Of a stretch of 64,000 nt of DNA, positions 4,630 through 63,422 are shown in pieces. The position numbers were made by a program, and so were the translations under genes. Position 1 is the stretch's first letter. Every line of letters begins with the position of its first letter. The notes beneath the pieces are model-generated. The model ran no database searches. It was not told the origin of the DNA and worked only from the letters and a program-made list of their open reading frames with translations. The stretch comes from Candidatus Omnitrophota bacterium (GTDB taxonomy: Bacteria > Omnitrophota > Omnitrophia > Omnitrophales > Aquincolibacteriaceae): the NCBI GenBank assembly GCA_022709525.1, contig JAKLIQ010000001.1, positions 146,679 through 210,678 of the forward strand, in the 5' to 3' direction.

Positions 4630-4700
4630 GGCCTCATGCTAGCGGCTTCATAAGGCCTTGAGAAGAGAAAAATCTTGGAGTGCATCCCGTCTTAGACTGG

Positions 4701-5004
4701 CATCCAAAAGGCTTCGGGCTTGAGCCCTCGGCAACACTTCGGGAATCCCCGGCGAGGATTCCCTCGTTCGGGTCTCACTTCTCGCTCCCTACTCTGTAGG
4801 TCCATGCCCCCTCGTCGTTCGAACGTGCCTTGGGCTCAACCCTCCGCCTTTTGTTCAGAAGAGTGAAGACGGAAAGTGTGTTTAAGCGACGTAAGGAGGC
4901 CAGAGCGCCAAGGTTTTTTGCGAGGCCGACGCTCCGAGTGCAGCCACGGCTCGGTGGGCCGTGGCAAACGTTCGCAAAAACACACTTTCCGGCGGAACGA
5001 AGGA
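4701..5004 (+). repeat. ~300-nt structured repeat element, copy 1 (candidate ncRNA or hairpin-ended non-autonomous element)
   Basis: About 85 % identical to 23173-23472 in the same orientation. Differences are compensatory in predicted stems. The ORFs predicted inside it look spurious. Confidence 0.6.
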
Positions 5005-7783: not shown

Positions 7784-7860
7784 AAGCCAACGATTGTTCC
7801 TCGGGATTCGTAAAAGCAAGCATTGAACGAGTCCCTAGGGGCGAGTCCCAAGTCCCGCTT

Positions 7861-9649: not shown

Positions 9650-9731
9650 GCGGTCGTGGCGAAATTGGCAGACGCGCAAGACTTAGGATCTTGTCCCGAA
9701 AGGGGTGGGGGTTCAAGTCCCTCCGACCGCA
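9650..9731 (+). tRNA. tRNA-Leu (TAG)
   Basis: Type II tRNA with a long variable arm (GTCCCGAAAGGGGT). Anticodon stem CAAGA/TCTTG and loop CTTAGGA. Confidence 0.9.
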
Positions 9732-9796
9732 CTTGTTCCTAATGAACAAGTACGGCACCGTGAGAGCTTAAGGATAGCTCTCTACGGTGACCGCAC
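9731..9796 (+). repeat. conserved double-hairpin tRNA trailer element, copy A
   Basis: acttgttc-CTAAT-gaacaagt is a perfect 8-bp stem. It is followed by a second hairpin gagagc-ttaaggata-gctctc flanked by acggcaccgt/tacggtgaccgca. A homologous unit follows tRNA-Gly. Confidence 0.55.
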
Positions 9797-9899: not shown

Positions 9900-10072
9900 C
9901 GAGTTCGAGAAATCGGTGCAATTGACAAAGATAAGACGCGCTTCTATCCTTGTCCATTATTTGTCTTTCAAATGGTTGACAAGGATTGCCCCAATTTCAA
10001 CTTTGTTGAAATTGATAAGTATTGGGACTAGAATACGGCCTCCCGAAGGCCGCGAAGTTATCACCTAAATAA

Positions 10073-10146
10073 GCGAGTGTAGCATAGTGGTAATGCTCTG
10101 CCTTGCCAAGGCAGCTACGAGGGTTCGATTCCCTCCACTCGCTCCA
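10073..10146 (+). tRNA. tRNA-Gly (GCC)
   Basis: GCGAGTGTAGCATAGTGGTAATGCTCTGCCTTGCCAAGGCAGCTACGAGGGTTCGATTCCCTCCACTCGCTCCA. Anticodon loop TTGCCAA. The 3' CCA is encoded. Confidence 0.9.
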
Positions 10147-10211
10147 CTTGTTCTTTATGAACAAGTACGGCACCGTCGAAGCATAAGGACAGCTTCGTAC
10201 GGTGACCGCAT
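10146..10211 (+). repeat. conserved double-hairpin tRNA trailer element, copy B
   Basis: acttgttc-TTTAT-gaacaagt followed by cgaagc-ataaggaca-gcttcg. The second stem differs from copy A by compensatory changes (gagagc/gctctc versus cgaagc/gcttcg). Confidence 0.55.
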
Positions 10212-10233
10212 CTAAATAGATAAGGCGGTTCAT

Positions 10234-11580
10234 GTGTTGTTTAAAAAAAATAAAGAAGCGTCCCCAGTAACGGCATCTCCCTCCGGTAATGTCGAAACCC
10301 TAGAATCTCCCATCAAGATCAAACTTCAGGACGGCAAACCCTGCGAGAAGATCCTGACGATCGAAGTCGCCCAGGACCGCATCAGCGAGGAATACGAGTC
10401 TTTTTATAAAGCGATCGCGCCACGGGCGAAGGTTCCCGGATTCCGTCCCGGAAAAGTGCCGCGCGATGTATTGATCATGCACTACGAAAAAAATGCCAAC
10501 GACTCGGTACTTGAAACACTTCTTTCAGAGTCCTTGCCGAAAGCTCTGCGCGAAAAAGACCTGAATCCGTTGGCGACGCCCGAGATCCGGGACATTCAAT
10601 TTACCAAAGAAAAACTTGCTTATAAGGCCCACGTCGAGGTTCGCCCCAAGGTCAAACTTTCCCGCATCACGGGTTTAAGTGCGAAGAAGGAAAAAGTCTC
10701 GATCAAGCCGGAAGATGTCGAAAAAGCCCTCAAACAGACCCAGGAAATGCACGCGCAGTACAAAGCAGTCGAGGGCCGGTCGGCCAAGATGGGCGATTTT
10801 ATCATCACCGATTATGTCTGTCTGATCGACGGCCAAGAAGTGGAAAAGCGCAATGACGACTGGATGGAACTGAAGGAAAAGGAATATCTGAAGGGTTTTT
10901 CCGCCCAGCTTGTCGGTGTTTCCGTCGGCGAAGAAAAAGATGTTCAGATCTCTTTCCCTCAGGACATGGCGGACAAGCGCGCCGCGGGAAAAACCGCGGT
11001 TTTCAAGATCAAAGTCAAAGAGATCAAAGAAAAAACACTGCCCGCGCTCGATGATGATTTCGCGAAACAGGCCGGCGATTACAAAAATCTGGACGACCTT
11101 AAACAAAAACTTGCCGCCGATCTTGAAAAACGCGCCGCCGATGAAAAAGAAGCGGCTTTCGAGCGGGAACTTCTCAATGAGCTCGCGAAACACAATAAAA
11201 TCGAGATCCCCGCGGGACTTTTGCAGCGGCGGGCGGAATATTTGACGGAGCAGGCGCGGCAGCGTTTTCTTCAGCAGGGCGGCACGGCCGAAATTTTCGA
11301 TAAAGAAAAAGAAAAAATGCAAAAGGAATTCGAATCCGAAGCGCGCCGCCAGATCCATATCGCTTTTCTTCTCGATGAGATCGCGGATGTCCAGGGGATC
11401 AAGGCGGATGACGCGGATCTTGTAAAAAAATACGAGATGCTTGCCCGGCAATACCGGCAGCCGAAAGAAACCGTCGAGAAATATTATCAGGAACACAAAG
11501 AAGCCAAAGAAACTTTGCTGGATCAAGTCCGAAACGAAAAAGTCATCGAATTCTTGAAGCAGAACGCGAAAACCAAATGA
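10234..11580 (+). CDS. tig: trigger factor
   Basis: PGFRPGKVPRDVLIMHY signature, PPIase middle domain and C-terminal arm. tig followed by clpP is the usual synteny. The N-terminus may be over-extended in the ORF track. Confidence 0.85.
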   Translation: MLFKKNKEASPVTASPSGNVETLESPIKIKLQDGKPCEKILTIEVAQDRISEEYESFYKAIAPRAKVPGFRPGKVPRDVLIMHYEKNANDSVLETLLSESLPKALREKDLNPLATPEIRDIQFTKEKLAYKAHVEVRPKVKLSRITGLSAKKEKVSIKPEDVEKALKQTQEMHAQYKAVEGRSAKMGDFIITDYVCLIDGQEVEKRNDDWMELKEKEYLKGFSAQLVGVSVGEEKDVQISFPQDMADKRAAGKTAVFKIKVKEIKEKTLPALDDDFAKQAGDYKNLDDLKQKLAADLEKRAADEKEAAFERELLNELAKHNKIEIPAGLLQRRAEYLTEQARQRFLQQGGTAEIFDKEKEKMQKEFESEARRQIHIAFLLDEIADVQGIKADDADLVKKYEMLARQYRQPKETVEKYYQEHKEAKETLLDQVRNEKVIEFLKQNAKTK

Positions 11581-17962: not shown

Positions 17963-19101
17963 AGCAGCTCTCGATCCTCGGTTCCACCGGTTCCGTCGGA
18001 GAAAATGTACTTCGCGTTGTCCGTATCCACTCCGAACGCTTCACGGTCAAAGCGCTCGCCGTCAGAAAAAACGCCGCAAGACTTTATGAGCAGGCCGCGG
18101 AATTCCGCCCCAAGATCGTTTGTATTTACGATCCACAAGTTGCTAAAAAATCCGCCGCTAAATTCAAGCGGCTCGGGATCCGCGTCGTCGCCGGTGACGA
18201 AGGCCTCGCGGAGGTCGCCACGCTCGCCGGGGTCGGAGAAGTTATTTGCGCCATGGTCGGCGCCGCCGGGCTTAAGCCGATCTTTGCCGCCGTAAACGCT
18301 AAGAAGACGGTCGCGATCGCCAACAAAGAACCGCTTGTCATGGCGGGCAAGCTTCTTTTGGAAACCGCGGAAAAAGCCGGCGTGCGCGTTCTTCCGATCG
18401 ACAGCGAACATTCCGCCCTCTGGCAATGCCTTGAAAACCAGGACCCCGCTTTCGTCAAAAAACTGATCATCACATCCTCCGGCGGGCCTTTCCGGAATAA
18501 AAAAGGTTCGCTTGCCAAGATCACGCCCGCGCAGGCGCTCGATCATCCCAAATGGAAAATGGGCCCGAAGATCACGATCGATTCGGCCACTCTTATGAAT
18601 AAAGGGCTCGAGGTGATCGAAGCCGCGAATCTTTTCCGCGTTCCGTCCGGCAAGATCGATGTGGTGGTCCATCCGGAAGCGATCGTGCACGCGCTTGTGG
18701 AATTCGTGGACGGTTCGCATTTCGCTCATTTAGGCGTAACCGACATGCGGCTTCCGATCCAATACGCTTTAAGCTATCCCGAGCGGCTCGAGGATCATTT
18801 GCCGCATTTGGACCTGACCCATCTAGCGGCGCTTCATTTCGAAGAACCCGATCGCAGACGGTTTCCGTGCCTCGATCTCGGTTATACGGCAAGTAAGATC
18901 GGCGGGACGATGCCGGCGGTGCTTAATGCCGCGAATGAAGTCGCGGTGGATGCTTTCCTTGCGGACCGCATTAGTTTTCTTGGGATCCCGAAGATCATTG
19001 AAAAGACCATGAGCGCGCACCGTTTGATTTATAAACCCGTTTTAGCGGATGTCTTTGCTGCCGATGCTTGGGCAAGGGAGACGGCCGGGGAGCTTTCATG
19101 A
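17959..19101 (+). CDS. dxr: 1-deoxy-D-xylulose 5-phosphate reductoisomerase
   Basis: N-terminal ILGSTGSVG NADPH motif and the Dxr catalytic region (ANKEPLVMAG...DSEHSALWQCL). Confidence 0.9.
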   Translation: MKQLSILGSTGSVGENVLRVVRIHSERFTVKALAVRKNAARLYEQAAEFRPKIVCIYDPQVAKKSAAKFKRLGIRVVAGDEGLAEVATLAGVGEVICAMVGAAGLKPIFAAVNAKKTVAIANKEPLVMAGKLLLETAEKAGVRVLPIDSEHSALWQCLENQDPAFVKKLIITSSGGPFRNKKGSLAKITPAQALDHPKWKMGPKITIDSATLMNKGLEVIEAANLFRVPSGKIDVVVHPEAIVHALVEFVDGSHFAHLGVTDMRLPIQYALSYPERLEDHLPHLDLTHLAALHFEEPDRRRFPCLDLGYTASKIGGTMPAVLNAANEVAVDAFLADRISFLGIPKIIEKTMSAHRLIYKPVLADVFAADAWARETAGELS

Positions 19102-20225
19102 ATTCTTTAATCTCTCTTTTACCGGCATTAATTGTTTTTGGCATTCTGATCATTGTTCATGAGTTCGGCCATTTTATCGCCTGCCGTCTGTCGAAAGTCC
19201 GCGTTGAAAAATTCTCGATCGGGTTCGGGCCGGAGCTTTTCCATTGGCAATCCAAGGAGACGCGCTTTTCAATCTCGATCTTTCCGCTCGGAGGTTTCGT
19301 GACTCCCGCAGGCGAAGAGGCCTCCAAAGTCAGTCCCGAAGGCCCGAAGCCAGGCGATTTTTTGGCGGCGCCGGTGCTTTCGAGGATCTTTATCGTGGTC
19401 TCCGGCGTGATCATGAATTATGTGCTCGCATTTCTGGTGTTCTGGACTGTTTTTATGATCGGCCGGCCGATGCCCGGCGCCGTGGTCGGAGGTTTCGTCA
19501 AAGGTTATCCGGCTGAGGCAAGCCGTTTAAAGGCCGGCGACAAGATCCTCATCGTGAACGATCAAGCCGTGACGCATTGGATGGATATATTAAAGGGTTT
19601 CGATGAAACGTCCGGGGCCGTGATCGATCTGACTGTCGAAAGACCGCGCGGGAACGCAAAACCCGAAATTCTTAAAATTCAGATCAAGCCCAAGATCGAA
19701 ACCATGCGGGATCCTTTCGGTAAAGTTGCCGAGGTAAAACGGGTCGGGATCACGCCGGATCCCAAAGTTTTCGTCAAAGAGCGTTACGATATCCTGCCCG
19801 CGCTAAAAAAAGCATGGGATCTTGAAGTTTCCTACACCGTTCTGACGCATAAAGCGCTTTTTTATCTGGTAACGGGGCAGTTGTCGCCTAAGAACCTCAT
19901 GGGGCCTCTCGGCATCATCCAGATGAGCGGCCAGGCCGCGCAGGCGGGGATCGTCGTCTTGTTGCAGCTCTTGGCGATCTTAAGCGTCTCGCTTGCGGTC
20001 ATCAATCTTTTGCCGTTCCCGGCGCTGGACGGAGGCCATCTTGTTTTTCTTTTGATCGAGCTTATTACCCGAAGACGCATTAGTCCTGTTTTGCAGGAAA
20101 GGATTACCACGGGCGGCTTCATTCTCCTCATGGCGCTCATGGTTTTCGTGATCTATAATGATGCCGTGAATCTTTCGATCCTCGACAAACTGAAAAACCT
20201 GTTTCATTTTAATGTAAGACCCTAG
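19098..20225 (+). CDS. rseP: RIP zinc metalloprotease (site-2 protease)
   Basis: HEFGHF motif in TM1, a PDZ-like middle region and a C-terminal LDGG motif. ATG at 19098. Conserved position after dxr. Confidence 0.8.
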   Translation: MNSLISLLPALIVFGILIIVHEFGHFIACRLSKVRVEKFSIGFGPELFHWQSKETRFSISIFPLGGFVTPAGEEASKVSPEGPKPGDFLAAPVLSRIFIVVSGVIMNYVLAFLVFWTVFMIGRPMPGAVVGGFVKGYPAEASRLKAGDKILIVNDQAVTHWMDILKGFDETSGAVIDLTVERPRGNAKPEILKIQIKPKIETMRDPFGKVAEVKRVGITPDPKVFVKERYDILPALKKAWDLEVSYTVLTHKALFYLVTGQLSPKNLMGPLGIIQMSGQAAQAGIVVLLQLLAILSVSLAVINLLPFPALDGGHLVFLLIELITRRRISPVLQERITTGGFILLMALMVFVIYNDAVNLSILDKLKNLFHFNVRP

Positions 20226-20227
20226 TT

Positions 20228-20265
20228 CACACCCGGTGTGTACACCAGTGTACACACCGGGTGTG
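20228..20265. repeat. perfect 38-nt palindromic element (RPE/REP-like), intergenic copy
   Basis: cacacccggtgtgtacac-ca-gtgtacacaccgggtgtg has perfect 18-bp arms. It lies exactly between the rseP stop and the proS start. The same unit recurs at 63151-63194 inside a kinase ORF. Confidence 0.7.
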
Positions 20266-20287
20266 GAGGTGGGTGGAGAGGGAAAAC

Positions 20288-21970
20288 ATGCGTTGGACAC
20301 AGACCCTGATCCCGAGTCTTCGGAATGTTCCCAAAGATGCCGAGGCCATCAGTCACCAGCTCGCCCTCCGGGCCGGGCTCATCCGCCAGCTTTCCTCGGG
20401 TGTTTACAGTTATTTGCCGCTCGGTTTCCGCGTCCTTCAAAAGATCATCGGGATCATCCGCGAGGAGATGAACCGCGCCGGCGCCTGCGAGGTGCTCATG
20501 CCCGCGCTTCATCCCGCCGAGATCTGGAAAAAATCCGGCCGCTACGAAACGCTCGGCGAAGACAAAATTTCCTTTAAGAACCGCTCAGGCCATGAATTTG
20601 TGCTTGGGCCGACGCATGAAGAGATCATCACCGATCTTGTCGGCACCAATATCAAATCTTTTCGCGATCTGCCGCTTAATCTTTATCAGATCCAGACCAA
20701 ATTCCGCGACGAAGCCCGCCCGCGTTTCGGCGTGATCCGCACCAAGGAATTCATCATGAAGGACGCCTACAGTTTTGATATTGACGAAAAAGGGCTCGAT
20801 CTGAATTATCAGAAAATGAACGACGCTTATCACCGGATCTTCACGCGCTGCGGCCTGAAATTCCAGGTCGTGAACGCGGATACGGGCATGATGGGCGGCA
20901 AGATGAGCCAGGAATTCATGGTGATCTGCCCCTACGGGGAAGACCGCGTCGCGAGTTCCGAAGGCGGCTATATCGCAAGCCAGGACATCGCCGGCCGCGG
21001 CGACCCGCATCTGAAGACGCCGGCGCCGAAATCTTCCAAACCGGAAGCTTTCGATACGCCAAACCTCCGCACGATCGAAGAGATCTCGCATAAATATAAA
21101 GTTCTTCCGCATCAAATGATCAAAACCTTGATCTATATGGCGGACGGAAAACCGGTCGCCGCGCTTGTGACAGGTGACAGTGAAGTCAATGAAAGCAAGC
21201 TGCGGAAGTTGACCGGCGCGAAGGAATTACGCCAGGCGGACGGGCCTGAGATCCAAGAGGCGACGGGAGCTCCCGTCGGATTCGCGGGGCCCGTGGGGCT
21301 TAAAATACCCGTTTACGCGGATTGGGATATTCTCGGGATCGCGGACGGCGTGACCGGCGCCAATGAAAAAGACAAACACTTGAAAGGCGTGACCATCGGC
21401 CGCGACTTCAAACCGACCGCAACCGGAGATATCCGTTTTGTCAAAGACGGCGATCTTGCTCCGGACGGAAAAGGTAAACTGACGCTTACGACCAGTATGG
21501 AGATCGGACACATTTTCAAACTCGGGATCCGTTATTCGGAATCGATCGGCGCGTATTTCCTGGATGAAAAAGGCGAACGCAAACCCGCGATCATGGGTTG
21601 CTATGGGATCGGCGTGAACCGCATCCTCGCGGCTGCCATCGAACAGCATCATGACACCAAAGGGATCCAGTGGCCCGAAGCGATCGCGCCTTTTGCCGCG
21701 GAGATCATCACGGTCAACCAAAATGACGAGAAGGTCCGGGCGGCCGCCGAAAAAATTTATGAAGAACTGACAGCCGCTGGCGCGGAAGTCCTTTATGACG
21801 ACCGCGATGAACGGGCCGGCGTGAAATTCAATGATGCGGACCTGGTCGGGATCCCCAAACAGATCGTGATCGGCGAGCGCAATTTGAAAGACGGTAAAGT
21901 TGAAATTAAAGATCGCGCTGCTGGCGCCACAAAAGTCGTTGATCTTGTTTCTGTTATCTCTTCACTTTAG
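20288..21970 (+). CDS. proS: prolyl-tRNA synthetase
   Basis: Class II aaRS motifs, an anticodon-binding domain and C-terminal similarity. ATG at 20288 (MRWTQTLIPSL). The ORF track's upstream start lies within the palindrome. Confidence 0.9.
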   Translation: MRWTQTLIPSLRNVPKDAEAISHQLALRAGLIRQLSSGVYSYLPLGFRVLQKIIGIIREEMNRAGACEVLMPALHPAEIWKKSGRYETLGEDKISFKNRSGHEFVLGPTHEEIITDLVGTNIKSFRDLPLNLYQIQTKFRDEARPRFGVIRTKEFIMKDAYSFDIDEKGLDLNYQKMNDAYHRIFTRCGLKFQVVNADTGMMGGKMSQEFMVICPYGEDRVASSEGGYIASQDIAGRGDPHLKTPAPKSSKPEAFDTPNLRTIEEISHKYKVLPHQMIKTLIYMADGKPVAALVTGDSEVNESKLRKLTGAKELRQADGPEIQEATGAPVGFAGPVGLKIPVYADWDILGIADGVTGANEKDKHLKGVTIGRDFKPTATGDIRFVKDGDLAPDGKGKLTLTTSMEIGHIFKLGIRYSESIGAYFLDEKGERKPAIMGCYGIGVNRILAAAIEQHHDTKGIQWPEAIAPFAAEIITVNQNDEKVRAAAEKIYEELTAAGAEVLYDDRDERAGVKFNDADLVGIPKQIVIGERNLKDGKVEIKDRAAGATKVVDLVSVISSL

Positions 21971-21995
21971 TTTCAGCTACATGCTGGGACTTGTT

Positions 21996-22070
21996 CCTCG
22001 GGACTAGGGACTCGTTCGGTTCTTTGCGGCTTTTTCGAGTCCCGAGACGCTAGTCCCGAGTCTCGTTTTT
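21996..22070 (+). terminator. complex intrinsic terminator after proS
   Basis: Imperfect inverted repeat, cctcgggactagggactcg (21996-22014) against cgagtcccgagacgctagtcccgagtctcg (22036-22065), followed by TTTTT. Confidence 0.5.
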
Positions 22071-23150
22071 ATGATCTGGCCTAAAAAATTCATCCACATC
22101 GATATGGACGCGTTCTTTGCTGCGGTCGAGCAACGCGACCGACCGGAACTTAAAGGGAAGCCCGTGATCGTGGGCGGGAATCCGCAAAGCCGCAGCGTCG
22201 TGAGCACCTGTTCCTATGAAGCGCGCAAATTCGGCATTCATTCCGCGATGCCGACCGCGCAAGCCAAACGGCTTTGCCCGCAGGGCATTTTCCTTTATCC
22301 CGATTTCGAAAAATACAGCGCTGTTTCAAAGACCGTCATGGGCATTCTTCACACCTACACGCCGCTTGTGGAGCAGGTGTCGCTGGATGAGGCCTATCTC
22401 GATGTTTTGGAAAACAAACTCAAACTTGCCGATCCGGTCAAGCTCGCCGGATTGATCAAGCAGCATATTTTTGCCGCGACGCGATTGACCGCCTCGGCCG
22501 GCGTTGCGCCCGCCATGTTCCTTGCGAAGATCGCTTCCGATATGGAAAAACCGGACGGGCTTACCGTGGTTTTTCCCGACAAAATCCTCGATTTCCTCAA
22601 GGACCTTCCGGTGCGGAAGATCCCGGGCGTCGGGCCGCGTACCGAAGAGATCCTTCACGGGATGACGCTTTATACTTGCGGGGACTTGTGGGGCGCCGAT
22701 CCTAAAAACCTCTGCGCGAGGCTCGGAAAATGGGGACTGGAACTTTTCCATAAAGCGCGCGGCGAGGAGCGGCGCGGCGTCGACCCGCATTGGGAACGAA
22801 CCCAGCTCAGCGAAGAAGAAACCTTCGCCAAAGACATCGCGGACATCCCCTGGCTTAAGCGCAAGCTCGCCCAGCTGGCCGAACACGTTTTTTACGGTCT
22901 TCAGCACGAAGGAAGAACGGGACGCACGGTCGTTCTTAAAGTCAAATATCATGATTTCGAACAGATCACGCGCTCCAAAACGCTTGCTGCGCCGCCGCAG
23001 GATTGGCATATCCTTCATGAGATCGCCTGCGACCTTTTAAAAAAGAAAACCCTGGCGGGCCGCAAGCCCATCCGGCTTCTCGGGCTCGGGATCAGCGGGT
23101 TAAGGGATAAGGATGAAGTGCCCGCCGCGATGCAGGGCGAGCTTTTTTAG
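22071..23150 (+). CDS. dinB: DNA polymerase IV (Y-family)
   Basis: N-terminal IHIDMDAFFAAVEQRD catalytic motif and a SLDEAYLD motif, with Y-family palm/fingers similarity. Confidence 0.85.
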   Translation: MIWPKKFIHIDMDAFFAAVEQRDRPELKGKPVIVGGNPQSRSVVSTCSYEARKFGIHSAMPTAQAKRLCPQGIFLYPDFEKYSAVSKTVMGILHTYTPLVEQVSLDEAYLDVLENKLKLADPVKLAGLIKQHIFAATRLTASAGVAPAMFLAKIASDMEKPDGLTVVFPDKILDFLKDLPVRKIPGVGPRTEEILHGMTLYTCGDLWGADPKNLCARLGKWGLELFHKARGEERRGVDPHWERTQLSEEETFAKDIADIPWLKRKLAQLAEHVFYGLQHEGRTGRTVVLKVKYHDFEQITRSKTLAAPPQDWHILHEIACDLLKKKTLAGRKPIRLLGLGISGLRDKDEVPAAMQGELF

Positions 23151-23172
23151 GGTCCATCCCACCTCATACAAT

Positions 23173-23472
23173 CATCCAAAAGGCTCCGGGCTCGAGCCCT
23201 CGTCAACACTTCGGGAATCCCCGGCGTGGATTCCCTCGTTCGGTCTCACTCCTCGCTCCCTGCTACGCAGGACCATGCCCGCTCGTCGTTCGAACGCGCC
23301 TTAGGCTCAACCCTCCGCCTTTTGTTTGAGCGTAGTCGGGAGTGTGTGTTAAACGGCGTAAGGAGGCCCGAGCGCCACGGTTTTCCAGCGAGGGCCGACG
23401 CTCCGAGTGTCGCCATGCCACGGTGGGACATGGCAAACGCCCGTGAAACACACACTCCCCGACGGAACGATA
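23173..23472 (+). repeat. ~300-nt structured repeat element, copy 2
   Basis: Homologous to 4701-5004 in the same orientation. Lies between dinB and leuC. Internal ORFs look spurious. Confidence 0.6.
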
Positions 23473-59664: not shown

Positions 59665-61968
59665 ATGACGACACTGATCCGCGCGTTTGAGTTCAACGGA
59701 TACGCCGTTCCCGTGCTGGCGGTCGGGATCCTGATGCTTCTGATCGGGATCTTTATTTTTCTCCAGAACAAGCGCTCCCGCGTCAATTTTTCGTTCTTCC
59801 TGATCGGCTTTTGCGGTTTTCTCTGGTTCCTCGGGATCGCCGGTACTTACGCGGCCAGCACGCCCGAAACCGCGCTTTTCATGTACCGGACCGTAACATT
59901 CCTGGGCGTCGCGCTGATCGCGCCCTGCACCCATTATTTTTCCGCGACATGGCTCGGCCTTTTCAAGAAACAAAAGCTTGCGATCCGCACGGGGCTTTTC
60001 TTCGGCGCGGCTTTTTACATCGTCGGGCTTTTTTCCCCACGAAGTTTCACGGGCGTCTACCATTATTTTTGGGGTTATTACCCGATGTACGGCCCGCTCA
60101 ACCGTTATTTCCTGGGGCTTTTTTTTCTGGTCCTTGCATGCGCATTCTTTAATTTCTTCAGCGCTCTCCTGAAAGAGCCTAAGGGGGTCCGGCGGACGCA
60201 GATCGGCCTTATCACGCTCGGTTTTCTCGTGGCGTTCCTGGGATCGTTCGATTATCTTCCGAAGTTCGTTTATTACCCCGTCCTACCGCTCGGTTTTCTG
60301 GCTGTTTTTTTCTGGATCCTTGTGGTCGCCTACGCGATCATCCGCTACAAAGCGATGGATATCGAAACGGTCATCCACAAAACCCTCATGTGGCTGGCCA
60401 CGACCGTCGTGGCGGTCATTCCGTTCGCGGCATTCATCTACTGGACCCAGCGCCTCCGCGATCCTTTGTCGGCTTGGGGCGCGACCGTCTATTACCTCGC
60501 CGTCGCGGTGGCTTTTTATTTCTATTTTCAGGCCATTCAGCCCCGTCTGGACTATCTTTTCCAGCGTCAGAGACGGAACCTTTTCGCGGTCATGGAGAAA
60601 TTTTCCCAGGAACTTGTCCACCTGAAAAGCCTCCGCGACCTGTTGCAGGGGTTCGCGCGCATGCTCCGCCGCCAGCTTTTTGTCCGCCGTCTTTCGGTTT
60701 TTTTGCTGGATGAAAAAAACAACGAATACATTCCCGCCATCGCCAAAGGGTTGCGCAGCCTTAAGCCTTTCCCTCAAAATCACCCGTTTTTAGCCTGGCT
60801 TGAGGAAAAAGATAGAGTCGTCATGAGCCACCTCGTCGGCGCGGACCCCGAGGTCGAAACCTTCAGGGCCGAGATCGAGCAGTTCTTCCGCCAGACGCAG
60901 GGATCCGTGGCCGTGCCGCTTGTCCTGGGCGGTAAGATGATCGGCGTGGTGAGTCTCGGCCGGAAAACCAACCTGAAGCCCTACCGCTCGGCCGAGATCC
61001 AGTTCCTGGCGCAACTCAAGATCCCGGTCACGATCGCCTTCTCGAATTCCATGCGGTATGAGAATATCAGCGAACTTTATACGCAAGTCCGCAAAATGAG
61101 CGAGGAACTCAAGCGGTGGAATGTGGAGCTGGAAAAGCGCGTCGTGGACCGGACGCGGGAACTCGTCAAGACACAGGAGCAGTTGACGCAGGCCGAGAAG
61201 CTCGCGACCTTGGGCACGCTCGCCGGCGGCGTGGCGCATGAGATCAATAACCCGCTCACCGCGGTCCTCACGAACGCCCAGATCCTCAAGATGACGGCCA
61301 CCGGGGATGTCAAAGAATCGCTCGATCTGATCGAGGAGGGCGCGAAGCGGTGCCAGGGGATCGTGCAGAAGCTCATGAAATACGCGCGCAAGACGGCAGA
61401 GGAAACGCCGCATAAGGATGTCGATCTGCGCGAGGTGATCCTGGGGACTTGCGCGCTTTTAAGCTTCCAGTTCCAGCAGGAAAATATCGAGGTCGAGTTG
61501 AAGCTCGCGGAAGTGCCGCCCGTCCAGGGGATCGCGGGTGAGCTTGAGCAAGTACTGATGAATCTTCTTGTGAACGCCCGTGATGCGATACAAGAGGGAA
61601 AGGTAAAAGGCAAGCCCAATTCTCTATTAAAAGATTCAAAGGTCAATTGGACTAGCCCTGGCAACCTTCGAGGAGAAGAAAATAGATGCCAGGGCAAGAT
61701 CACGGTTGAAACGCGCAAAACCCCGGCCGCGGTCGAACTTTCCGTCACTGATAACGGGATCGGGATCTCCAAAGAGCATCAGAAAAAGATCTTTGACCCC
61801 TTCTTCACCACCAAAGATGTCGGTTCAGGGACCGGCTTGGGTCTCGCCGTCAGTTTCGGTATTCTCAAGCGTCACAACGCCACGATCAGCGTTGCTTCGG
61901 CCCCCGGCAAGGGCGCGGCGTTCACCGTCAGCTTCCCATTGAGCCACACTCACAAAACCAAACCATGA
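59665..61968 (+). CDS. sensor histidine kinase (multi-TM N-terminal sensor, GAF-like, HisKA, HATPase_c) with ~30-aa insertion in the ATP-lid region
   Basis: About 7 TM helices. H-box (AHEINNPLTAV), N-box (LVNARDA), G1 (DNGIGI) and G2 (GTGLGLAV). Between the N-box and G1 there is an extra segment (KVKGKPNSLLKDSKVNWTSPGNLRGEENRCQ), AT-rich at the DNA level, containing a 9-bp inverted repeat. Confidence 0.8.
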   Translation: MTTLIRAFEFNGYAVPVLAVGILMLLIGIFIFLQNKRSRVNFSFFLIGFCGFLWFLGIAGTYAASTPETALFMYRTVTFLGVALIAPCTHYFSATWLGLFKKQKLAIRTGLFFGAAFYIVGLFSPRSFTGVYHYFWGYYPMYGPLNRYFLGLFFLVLACAFFNFFSALLKEPKGVRRTQIGLITLGFLVAFLGSFDYLPKFVYYPVLPLGFLAVFFWILVVAYAIIRYKAMDIETVIHKTLMWLATTVVAVIPFAAFIYWTQRLRDPLSAWGATVYYLAVAVAFYFYFQAIQPRLDYLFQRQRRNLFAVMEKFSQELVHLKSLRDLLQGFARMLRRQLFVRRLSVFLLDEKNNEYIPAIAKGLRSLKPFPQNHPFLAWLEEKDRVVMSHLVGADPEVETFRAEIEQFFRQTQGSVAVPLVLGGKMIGVVSLGRKTNLKPYRSAEIQFLAQLKIPVTIAFSNSMRYENISELYTQVRKMSEELKRWNVELEKRVVDRTRELVKTQEQLTQAEKLATLGTLAGGVAHEINNPLTAVLTNAQILKMTATGDVKESLDLIEEGAKRCQGIVQKLMKYARKTAEETPHKDVDLREVILGTCALLSFQFQQENIEVELKLAEVPPVQGIAGELEQVLMNLLVNARDAIQEGKVKGKPNSLLKDSKVNWTSPGNLRGEENRCQGKITVETRKTPAAVELSVTDNGIGISKEHQKKIFDPFFTTKDVGSGTGLGLAVSFGILKRHNATISVASAPGKGAAFTVSFPLSHTHKTKP

Positions 61969-63422
61969 ACCCCTATAATTTTTCTGTTCTCTGCTTTGGA
62001 TTTTGTTCCCTTCTTTTAGGGTTTTTTGTGTGGTGGAAGCGGCAAGACAGGATCGGAAAATTATATTTCATATTGTCCTTATGTTATGCGGGCTGGGCCT
62101 TACCGTTTTCCATTAAAATAAGCGATAACATTTCCTACTATGCGGCGCTTCATGCGGCCAGGATCGCAAATTGCGCCGCAGCATTTATTCCCGCTGCCTG
62201 GTTCCATTTTTGCGTGGTTTATACCGAAAAAGAAAAAATTCTGCATAAACTGATCCGGATCTTTTATCTCATACCTTTTCTCATCCTCGCTGTTTCTTAT
62301 ACGCCCTGGTTTGTACCAAGCCTAAGGCCGATCCTTAGCTTTAGACATTATGCGACACCCGGCATTTTTTATTATCTGATGACGTTTAATTATTTCTTGA
62401 TCACTCCTCTGGGTTTTTGGCTTCTGGTAAGAAGAATCAGAGAAGTATCGGGGAACGAAAAAGGGCAGATCCTGGGGCTTTTTTGGGCGGCTTTCGCCGG
62501 CTATTTAGGAGGAGCGACGACTTTTTTGCCGATCTACGGAATAGCGTTTCCTCAAGAGGGTATGTTCCTTCTTCCGCTCTATCCCTTCGCGCTGGCTTAT
62601 TTCATGACCAAGCAAAAACTTTTTGATGTCGAGGAGTTCGCCCAAGCGGCGCACCGGGACAAGCTCACGGCGATCGGGGTCCTGGCGGCCAGTATCAATC
62701 ATGAGGTCAAAAACCCCTTATTCATTATCAAAGGCCTTGCGGAAAGCTGCCTGGAGCGTCAGAGAGAAGGAGTTTTTCCGACCAAAGAAAAAGCCCTTGA
62801 TGGCGCCAATGAAGCGTTCAAACGGACCATGGAACAGGCCGATCGGGCCATGGATATTATTAAGCGCCTGTCACTTTTTGCGAAAGCGGGGATCGAAAGC
62901 GAGATCAAACTCGAACCGGTTAAAGTTTCGGCGGTTTTAGAAGACATCCTTCCGCTCCTCCGCTATGAGCTTGCCGCTCATGGCATTACCCTTATCCGGG
63001 ACCTCCCTCCCAACCTCCCCGAAGTCCAGGCCGACCGGAGATACCTTGAAGAGATCTTTTTTAATTTGATCTTCAACGCCTGTCAGGCGTTAAAAGACGC
63101 AAACAAACCAGGCGAGATCATTATTAGGGCAGTCGCGAGCAACGCACCCCGTACACACCCGGTGTGTACATTGGTGGACACACCGGGTGTGTACAAGGGT
63201 TCGGTCGTTATTGAAATCTCTGACAACGGCCCAGGGATCCCGGGAGATAAGCTTAAAGACGTCTTCCGTCCTTTCTATACCACCAAAGCCGAAGGCACCG
63301 GTCTGGGCCTCTACATCACCCAGCAGCTGGTCGAAAAGATCAAAGGACGTATTTCCGTTAGTTCCGAGGCCGGTAAAAATACAACCTTTACAGTTTCGCT
63401 TCCTTCGAGCCCCAAGACATGA
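61965..63422 (+). CDS. sensor histidine kinase paralog 2 (7TM sensor, HisKA, HATPase_c) carrying an in-frame palindromic element
   Basis: ATGA overlap with the upstream kinase. H-box (INHEVKNPLFII), N-box (IFNACQA), G1 (DNGPGI) and G2 (GTGLGLYI). The palindromic repeat at 63151-63194 encodes RTHPVCTLVDTPGVY in the ATP-lid region. The 5' part is AT-rich. Confidence 0.8.
   Translation: MNPYNFSVLCFGFCSLLLGFFVWWKRQDRIGKLYFILSLCYAGWALPFSIKISDNISYYAALHAARIANCAAAFIPAAWFHFCVVYTEKEKILHKLIRIFYLIPFLILAVSYTPWFVPSLRPILSFRHYATPGIFYYLMTFNYFLITPLGFWLLVRRIREVSGNEKGQILGLFWAAFAGYLGGATTFLPIYGIAFPQEGMFLLPLYPFALAYFMTKQKLFDVEEFAQAAHRDKLTAIGVLAASINHEVKNPLFIIKGLAESCLERQREGVFPTKEKALDGANEAFKRTMEQADRAMDIIKRLSLFAKAGIESEIKLEPVKVSAVLEDILPLLRYELAAHGITLIRDLPPNLPEVQADRRYLEEIFFNLIFNACQALKDANKPGEIIIRAVASNAPRTHPVCTLVDTPGVYKGSVVIEISDNGPGIPGDKLKDVFRPFYTTKAEGTGLGLYITQQLVEKIKGRISVSSEAGKNTTFTVSLPSSPKT
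63151..63194. repeat. palindromic element (RPE-like), intragenic in-frame copy
   Basis: gtacacacccggtgtgtaca-ttggtg-gacacaccgggtgtgtac. It shares the 17-nt core cacacccggtgtgtaca and its reverse complement with the intergenic copy at 20228-20265. Confidence 0.65.

Follow-up and report, generated by a model that had tools for sequence, protein, structure and literature searches.

The window analysed here is a 64,000-nt stretch of DNA from a Candidatus Omnitrophota bacterium, and we identified in it two copies of a short palindromic element, one between two genes and the other within a coding sequence (Table 1). Repetitive extragenic palindromes are known as REPs, and hairpin-forming doublets of them as REPINs; both window copies share the latter architecture, with two inverted units combined into one hairpin. 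The intergenic copy separates rseP and proS and reads CACACCCGGTGTGTACAC-CA-GTGTACACACCGGGTGTG, which is two perfect 18-nt arms around a 2-nt spacer, the 38-nt perfect palindrome that the original prediction had described. Imperfect pairing around it reaches 20219–20274 (27-nt arms, 85%). The palindrome lies 2 nt past the rseP stop codon (20223–20225) and 22 nt ahead of the proS ATG. These positions give a spacer of 62 nt, of which the palindrome covers 38, so it does not make up the whole spacer as had been claimed.

Two 19-bp near-palindromes of the form GTACACACC-S-GGTGTGTAC, their cores 25 bp from each other, make up the doublet at each locus, and the two loci are 82% identical to each other over 50 nt. 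Seven matches to the 17-mer CACACCCGGTGTGTACA at up to three mismatches were counted in the window, versus 0.02 expected from shuffles, and none falls outside these two loci (the 20228 region and 63150–63195); both the palindrome and its recurrence far exceed chance expectation. Within the approximately 84 kb of the source genome that was examined, the element is present at two loci with four units in total, one locus being intergenic and one intragenic. The doublets are compact (44–54 bp) and the units are short stem-loop-forming palindromes, which in the intergenic doublet combine into the perfect 18+2+18 structure. The window units end in GTAC and carry neither a GTAG nor a CGTC tag. These tags are the hallmark of two described REP superfamilies and are no general property of REPs (Di Nocera et al, 2013; PMC3733652).

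In a 96-nt context the intergenic copy is predicted to fold as RNA at -46.1 kcal/mol (z = -5.95), and the doublet folds as DNA at -22.9 kcal/mol (z = -4.9). We rejected a terminator reading of this hairpin, given that no T-run follows position 20265 and that a scan for rho-independent terminators at the element was negative. The promoter scan found no sigma-70 match at the element, and an Rfam scan of the whole window returned five tRNAs only, with nothing at the element.

Table 1. Palindromic elements, neighbouring genes and RAYT-type genes discussed in the text. Positions are those of the window unless a locus is named.
Feature	Position	Strand	Description
Intergenic REPIN-like doublet	20228..20265	.	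Perfect 18+2+18 palindrome between rseP stop (20225) and proS ATG (20288)
REP-like unit 1, intergenic doublet	20225..20243	.	GTTCACACCCGGTGTGTAC; one mismatch versus the 19-bp palindrome GTACACACC-S-GGTGTGTAC
REP-like unit 2, intergenic doublet	20250..20268	.	GTACACACCGGGTGTGGAG; core 25 nt past unit 1 core
rseP-like site-2 protease gene	19068..20225	+	Upstream neighbour of the intergenic copy; Pfam Peptidase_M50 and PDZ
proS	20288..21970	+	Downstream neighbour; class II prolyl-tRNA synthetase with editing domain (Pfam)
SD-like sequence of proS	20275-20282		GGAGAGGG; begins 10 nt past the stem of the intergenic hairpin
HK2	61965..63422	+	Host gene; 485-aa 7TM histidine kinase; Pfam HisKA_7TM, HisKA, HATPase_c
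REPIN-like doublet in HK2	63147..63200	+	In frame; includes CCCC.../...AAGGG flanks; encodes roughly PRTHPVCTLVDTPGVYKG
REP-like unit 1 in HK2	63151..63169	.	GTACACACCCGGTGTGTAC; perfect 9+1+9 palindrome
REP-like unit 2 in HK2	63176..63194	.	GGACACACCGGGTGTGTAC
HK1	59665-61968		Kinase paralog
Palindromic insert in HK1	61652..61698	+	61642-61700 at widest; CTAGCCCTGGCA ... TGCCAGGGCAAG, peptide KVNWTSPGNLRGEENRCQG, in frame; second site, after the N box
Second palindromic family (GGGACT), intergenic copy	21986..22065	.	GGGACTAGGGACTCGTTC ... CGAGTCCCGAG, just past proS stop
GGGACT repeat family, another intergenic copy	7818..7856	.	
RAYT-like Y1_Tnp gene	L188 7527-8117		196 aa; same 550-kb contig, about 1.75-2.3 kb upstream of window position 1
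RAYT gene of L040	L040 6765-7424	minus	Between TGTACACACCGGGTGTGTACA and CCCTACTGTCCACACCGGGTGTGGACAGTAGGG

Other repeats were found in the vicinity. A non-coding repeat of approximately 300 nt is present at 4675–4979 and 23147–23448, both intergenic, in copies that are 89% identical; it has no Rfam match, even in a permissive scan. In places its copies differ in what seems a compensatory manner (GCCACGGC..GCCGTGGC versus GCCATGCC..GACATGGC), a pattern suggestive of a structured RNA or of a larger element that is non-autonomous. A 66-nt repeat with two hairpins (9730–9795 and 10145–10210, 85% identical) lies in each case directly 3' of a tRNA gene (tRNAs 9650–9731 and 10073–10143). Genes for BrnT-type and PemK-type toxins are located near the two ends of the region.

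The kinase copy and its conservation in orthologs

The second copy was claimed to lie in frame within the histidine kinase gene HK2, and both the ORF translation and the repeat match bear this out. Its translation, ...APRTHPVCTLVDTPGVYKGS..., falls in the interval from the N box (NLIFNACQA) to the G1 box (DNGPGI), and as DNA the copy is the strongest short-range inverted repeat of the four-kinase region. A protein identical to HK2 is encoded on seven contigs from several independent samples, which excludes an assembly artefact, and also in the NCBI MAG GCA_035389965.1 (Candidatus Omnitrophota). Comparison with 113 homologs confirmed that the segment is an insertion, since the HK2 segment exceeds their 23–29 aa baseline. 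The segment from the N box to G1 measures 44 aa in HK2 versus a modal 26 aa in homologs, an excess of 18 codons rather than the sixteen first proposed.

In the AlphaFold model of HK2 (mean pLDDT 80.7), residues 392–412 are coil, with pLDDT below 50 at 394–407. The insert is accordingly predicted to form the tip of a surface beta-hairpin before G1, between strands 383–391 and 413–420. The ATP lid, in its standard definition, lies between the G1 (G1/F) and G2 boxes; the insert, being between the N box and G1, is therefore outside it. Of the original placement in a surface ATP-lid loop, the model retains the surface turn, but assigns it to the pre-G1 hairpin and not to the lid.

Four syntenic orthologs, including those at loci L184, L186 and L187, are 52–63% identical to HK2 and keep the doublet with its core nucleotides unchanged. 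In L186 and L187 this kinase occupies second place in a syntenic array that resembles the one in the window. In L184, L186 and L187 the two cores are 25 nt apart and occupy the same codon position and frame as in HK2. The 12-nt linker between the cores differs in each of the three, and in L187 the whole forms a perfect 24+4+24 palindrome. Among columns with an invariant residue in four proteins, codons are identical at 7 of 8 in the cores versus 33 of 183 elsewhere (Fisher p = 7.6e-5). This conservation fits three readings alike: a constraint on the nucleic acid, gene conversion or re-insertion, and independent arrival at one precise site.

Orthologs with the same peptide and without the palindrome had been named as evidence against an insertion. 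The peptide is indeed shared at 52–63% identity, but the palindromic DNA is present as well, and its unchanged cores favour a DNA-level element over an ancestral peptide. In L184, adjacent kinase paralogs share a three-unit REP insert with near-identical flanks (18–70 and 1544–1600), a sign that tandem kinases do exchange sequence by gene conversion or were recently duplicated. A related variant (AACACCGGGTGTT within CCCCTCTAACACC...GGTGTTAGAGGGG) follows a stop codon at L184 1827.

Related loci and their association with RAYT genes

We scanned a genome collection, with one genome per species, for the exact 17-mer and obtained 72 loci; this number is close to a rough chance estimate of approximately 70, and many of the loci are chance matches in unrelated coding genes, so only the palindromic and the RAYT-linked subsets are meaningful. 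A metagenome scan with the motif gave at least 106 stretches. Further copies of the element, as single or double palindromic units, were thereby found in other Omnitrophota and in CPR genomes, in line with the expectation that more copies exist. In the Omnitrophota group the motif is contained in a longer palindrome, (GGACA)CCCTGTACACACC-S-GGTGTGTACAGGG(TGTCC), either single or as a doublet, and the Omnitrophota MAG MHFU01 has the exact 17-mer on four contigs. Many of the related loci share the REPIN architecture, and the core spacing among doublets, those of the window included, is 19, 23, 25 or 34 nt. A helicase gene of another genome (L111; AddA-type UvrD/PD-(D/E)XK, 1151 aa) contains a single in-frame unit, translated as PCTHRVCTGS and located between the two helicase domain matches. 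Other copies, in loci that we inspected individually, lie in the space separating convergent genes, at the 3' end of a gene or a short way ahead of a start codon.

The RAYT-linked group comprises contigs labelled WWE3, Levybacteria and 'uncultured Gammaproteobacteria' together with unlabelled metagenome contigs. Here two motif copies 700–770 bp apart bracket an ORF of about 220–225 aa. The core CACACCSGGTGTG occurs within approximately 60 nt of both ends of the RAYT ORF in at least nine loci (L011, L040, L053, L085, L092, L131, L148, L162 and L181), of which L040 is an Omnitrophota MAG and the other eight are CPR-type or unlabelled metagenome contigs; by tblastn, RAYT genes adjoin the motif at 16 loci. 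CTAC...GTAG is present in the REP located upstream of the RAYT gene in L040. The ORF matches Pfam Y1_Tnp (PF01797) at 34–38 bits (cut-off 23), and its best NCBIfam match is REP_Tyr_transpos (NF047646) at 54–71 bits, below the 80-bit equivalog cut-off. Its sole PDB match is 4ER8, E. coli TnpA-REP, with which the HxH (H-I-H) and YIxxNP (RYIHLNP) motifs align. Judged from its Y1_Tnp fold, HUH motif and catalytic tyrosine, the bracketed ORF has the marks of a RAYT, with putative activity. The same repeat on both sides of a RAYT gene constitutes a REPtron, the arrangement that defines REP/RAYT systems (PMC3733652). The presence of the core at both ends of RAYT genes places the element in the REP/REPIN type and supports the original view of a mobile, REP-like palindrome family.

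The RAYT family has 3427 homologs, and Omnitrophota are the majority among the named best matches. One of these proteins, the L183 RAYT, is 59% identical and has a different flanking palindrome, from which it appears that repeat and enzyme co-vary only loosely. In L183, another Omnitrophota genome, the RAYT gene and its own REPs (TTACACCTACGCGGTGTAAG) lie at 10001–10648 between the ATP synthase beta and epsilon genes, in the atp operon.

A search for a RAYT gene was also part of the original prediction, and its outcome is divided: core-flanked RAYT genes are present in L040 and the eight CPR-type or unlabelled loci, but no cognate one was found in the source genome. There, tblastn was negative in the window, in 10 kb downstream and in L001–L004, and none of the best 120 of the 3427 homologs is encoded on the window's own contig of 550,887 nt. 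P0168 is carried by a contig of 530 kb; we rejected it as the cognate RAYT because it belongs to another sample and has a different REP. A RAYT-like gene upstream of the window (L188) scores 55.6 bits against NCBIfam REP_Tyr_transpos (cut-off 80) and retains an intact Tyr motif, with R-V-H in place of the HUH motif. It is flanked by GGTACCnGGTAC palindromes (L188 7424, 7452 and 8138), which are unlike the core of the HK2 and intergenic copies and have no dispersed copies in the 84 kb examined. These palindromes, and an identity to the L040 RAYT of only 30%, speak against it as the cognate enzyme; the gene may code for a RAYT that is inactive or has another specialisation. The cognate gene may be elsewhere in the genome or may have been lost, and loss of the RAYT does occur in some REP-bearing strains (PMC3733652). 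The same part of the contig, a few kb upstream of the window, holds a giant ORF (L188 1–6638; called product of 4357 aa, extending beyond the locus) that matches beta-helix/NosD and, weakly, RHS.

Inserts at the pre-G1 hairpin of the kinases

In 114 parseable kinase homologs compared for the length from N box to G1, this segment measures 23–29 aa in 53 (mode 26) and 34–118 aa in 61. The expanded homologs fall into about eight recurring peptide types: THPVC...TPGVY, which is the HK2 element; PSPSLSRGERDGVRG; SGLAMT / VIASEAKQS; RPGLxKHxKTGSLEG; GDSP...GTVP; GLGTSPSFF...ERVP; VIPAKAGIQ; and FDSAQDDS. An additional type, NWTSPGN, is found at a second site directly after the N box. The inserts that we checked as DNA, those of the HK2 type and of three others, are all palindromic. 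As DNA, the LAMT/VIAS insert of L185 forms an inverted repeat.

All four tandem paralogs of the source genome (HK1–HK4) carry inserts, and each insert falls on a short-range inverted repeat that ranks among the strongest in the region. The peptide type of the HK1 insert also occurs in P0033, P0039, P0042, P0056, P0066 and P0068, and a related peptide adjoins the REP in the L111 helicase. The GGGACT family (GGGACTAGGGACT...) is read in frame as GLGTSPSFF...ERVP in the hairpins of HK3 and HK4, just past the window end (L001 12623–12725 and 14126–14172). This HK3/HK4 repeat is one insert family, apart from that of HK2, that is also intergenic in the source genome. In a neighbour-joining tree of 88 homologs, constructed with the insert segment removed and without support values, the insert types are scattered and sisters differ. 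The nine closest homologs of HK2 (70–74% identity) have other inserts or none, and the HK2 element reappears at 55–62% identity.

With unrelated palindromic repeats in this loop of many relatives, the hairpin looks like a recurrent landing site. A further-reaching proposal, which we advance as speculative and rather doubtful, is that the pre-G1 hairpin is a targeted landing pad, and more than a tolerant loop, at which palindromic elements of about eight peptide types have been repeatedly captured or swapped. The cores in HK2 would then owe their preservation as nucleotide sequence to RAYT recognition, to gene conversion with other copies, or to an RNA or DNA function. If this were true, the HK2 stretch would be dual-coding and would drive diversification of the tandem kinase paralogs.

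Origin of the element and comparison with known systems

Taken together, we consider the element to be very probably a member of a REP/REPIN family, which a RAYT would have spread, and we include the hot spot at the kinase hairpin in this reading. The two 19-bp units, 25 bp apart, form one long hairpin, and by analogy with E. coli TnpA-REP and the Pseudomonas REPINs, the RAYT, an HUH/Y1 tyrosine transposase, would recognise the folded single strand and copy or maintain the doublets. The kinase copy has landed in frame at the tip of the HK2 hairpin, where it adds approximately 18 residues, predicted to be disordered, and would be a tolerated passenger. The intergenic copy, on a probably polycistronic rseP–proS transcript, would fold as RNA into a highly stable hairpin that lacks a terminator tail, and its most likely effect would be that of a barrier to 3'-exonucleases or a modulator of proS translation.

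An improbable alternative is that the hairpins are host RNA elements, such as transcript-end or processing signals or mRNA stabilisers, that arose and are kept for that role, and not mobile DNA. The high stability of the RNA hairpin agrees with such a role, as does the location shortly after the stop codon of the first of two same-strand genes, which is typical of REPs that act at the RNA level (PMC3733652). However, there is no U-tract, and the in-frame copies in the kinase and the helicase and the flanking of RAYT genes would be left unexplained. A host RNA role is compatible with the REP/REPIN reading as a secondary, exapted one.

We judge it very unlikely that the 19-bp palindromes are operators for a dimeric DNA-binding regulator, with the doublets as tandem operators and the kinase copy as an internal regulatory site. 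The 9+1+9 symmetry of each unit, the fixed 25-bp spacing of the pairs and the position of several Omnitrophota copies, which closely precede a ribosome-binding site and start codon, would suit operators, but the core is found at both RAYT ends in at least nine loci, other copies lie inside unrelated coding genes (kinase and helicase) and between convergent genes, the window copy has no promoter-like site with it, and no regulon-like set of neighbours emerged. Very unlikely as well is an ancestral kinase peptide under selection, its intergenic likeness being a coincidence or a fragment of the kinase gene: although the four syntenic orthologs (52–63%) share peptide, codon position and frame, the synonymous positions of the cores are unchanged while those elsewhere in the gene have turned over, the nine closest homologs (70–74%) lack the segment, the linker between the cores varies as freely as expected of a DNA hairpin loop, and the same DNA flanks RAYT genes.

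The REP/REPIN element of the window belongs to a known kind, as in-frame REPs and RPEs have already been described: intragenic REPs are often dimers encoding 20–30 aa, including in UvrD-type genes, and Rickettsia RPEs are likewise found in frame (PMC3733652). It resembles REP/REPIN-RAYT systems (E. coli REP/BIME and Pseudomonas REPINs) in its short G+C-rich palindromes and inverted doublets folding into one hairpin, in its location past stop codons, in a unit that flanks a single Y1/HUH transposase gene in relatives, and in occasional in-frame dimers encoding approximately 20 aa, UvrD-type repair genes included. Unlike described REPs, its unit is a near-perfect 19-bp palindrome ending in GTAC and its doublet is very compact, at 44–54 bp. 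Its hosts, Omnitrophota and CPR, also set it apart from described REP systems, as do RAYTs that score below the NCBIfam equivalog cut-off. Our literature search found no published report of a RAYT or REP for Omnitrophota or CPR.

The element had been likened to the Rickettsia RPEs, which are also palindromic repeats placed between genes and in frame in surface regions of proteins. RPEs are mostly longer (about 100–150 bp for RPE-1), and we know of no RAYT partner for them. Given these differences in host lineage, length and RAYT linkage, only the behaviour, compared here by description, is alike; the intergenic and in-frame part of the analogy stands, but a REP/REPIN with a RAYT is nearer. Bacterial MITEs (Nezha, Correia/NEMIS and ERIC) are similar in being small, non-autonomous, hairpin-capable repeats that can be co-transcribed and alter genes. 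However, MITEs have the terminal inverted repeats of DDE-type IS elements and target-site duplications, neither of which is seen in this element, whose partner is a Y1 transposase.

What is new in comparison with these systems is a family with a GTAC-ended 19-bp unit, its Omnitrophota and CPR hosts and the one core common to these lineages, as well as a single kinase hairpin at which many repeat families are concentrated and the nucleotide-level conservation at an orthologous coding site. The REP/RAYT system is thereby extended to Omnitrophota and CPR, with one recognisable core common to both. For annotation, the element and its like account for odd low-complexity peptides (THPVC/TPGVY, LAMT/VIASEAKQS, PSLSRGERDGVRG and others) in proteins predicted from metagenomes. 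The more than 60 kinase homologs with inserts at one hairpin, in about eight peptide types, form a natural series for studying by what route selfish palindromes get into coding DNA, whether their insertion is targeted and how proteins accommodate the additional residues.
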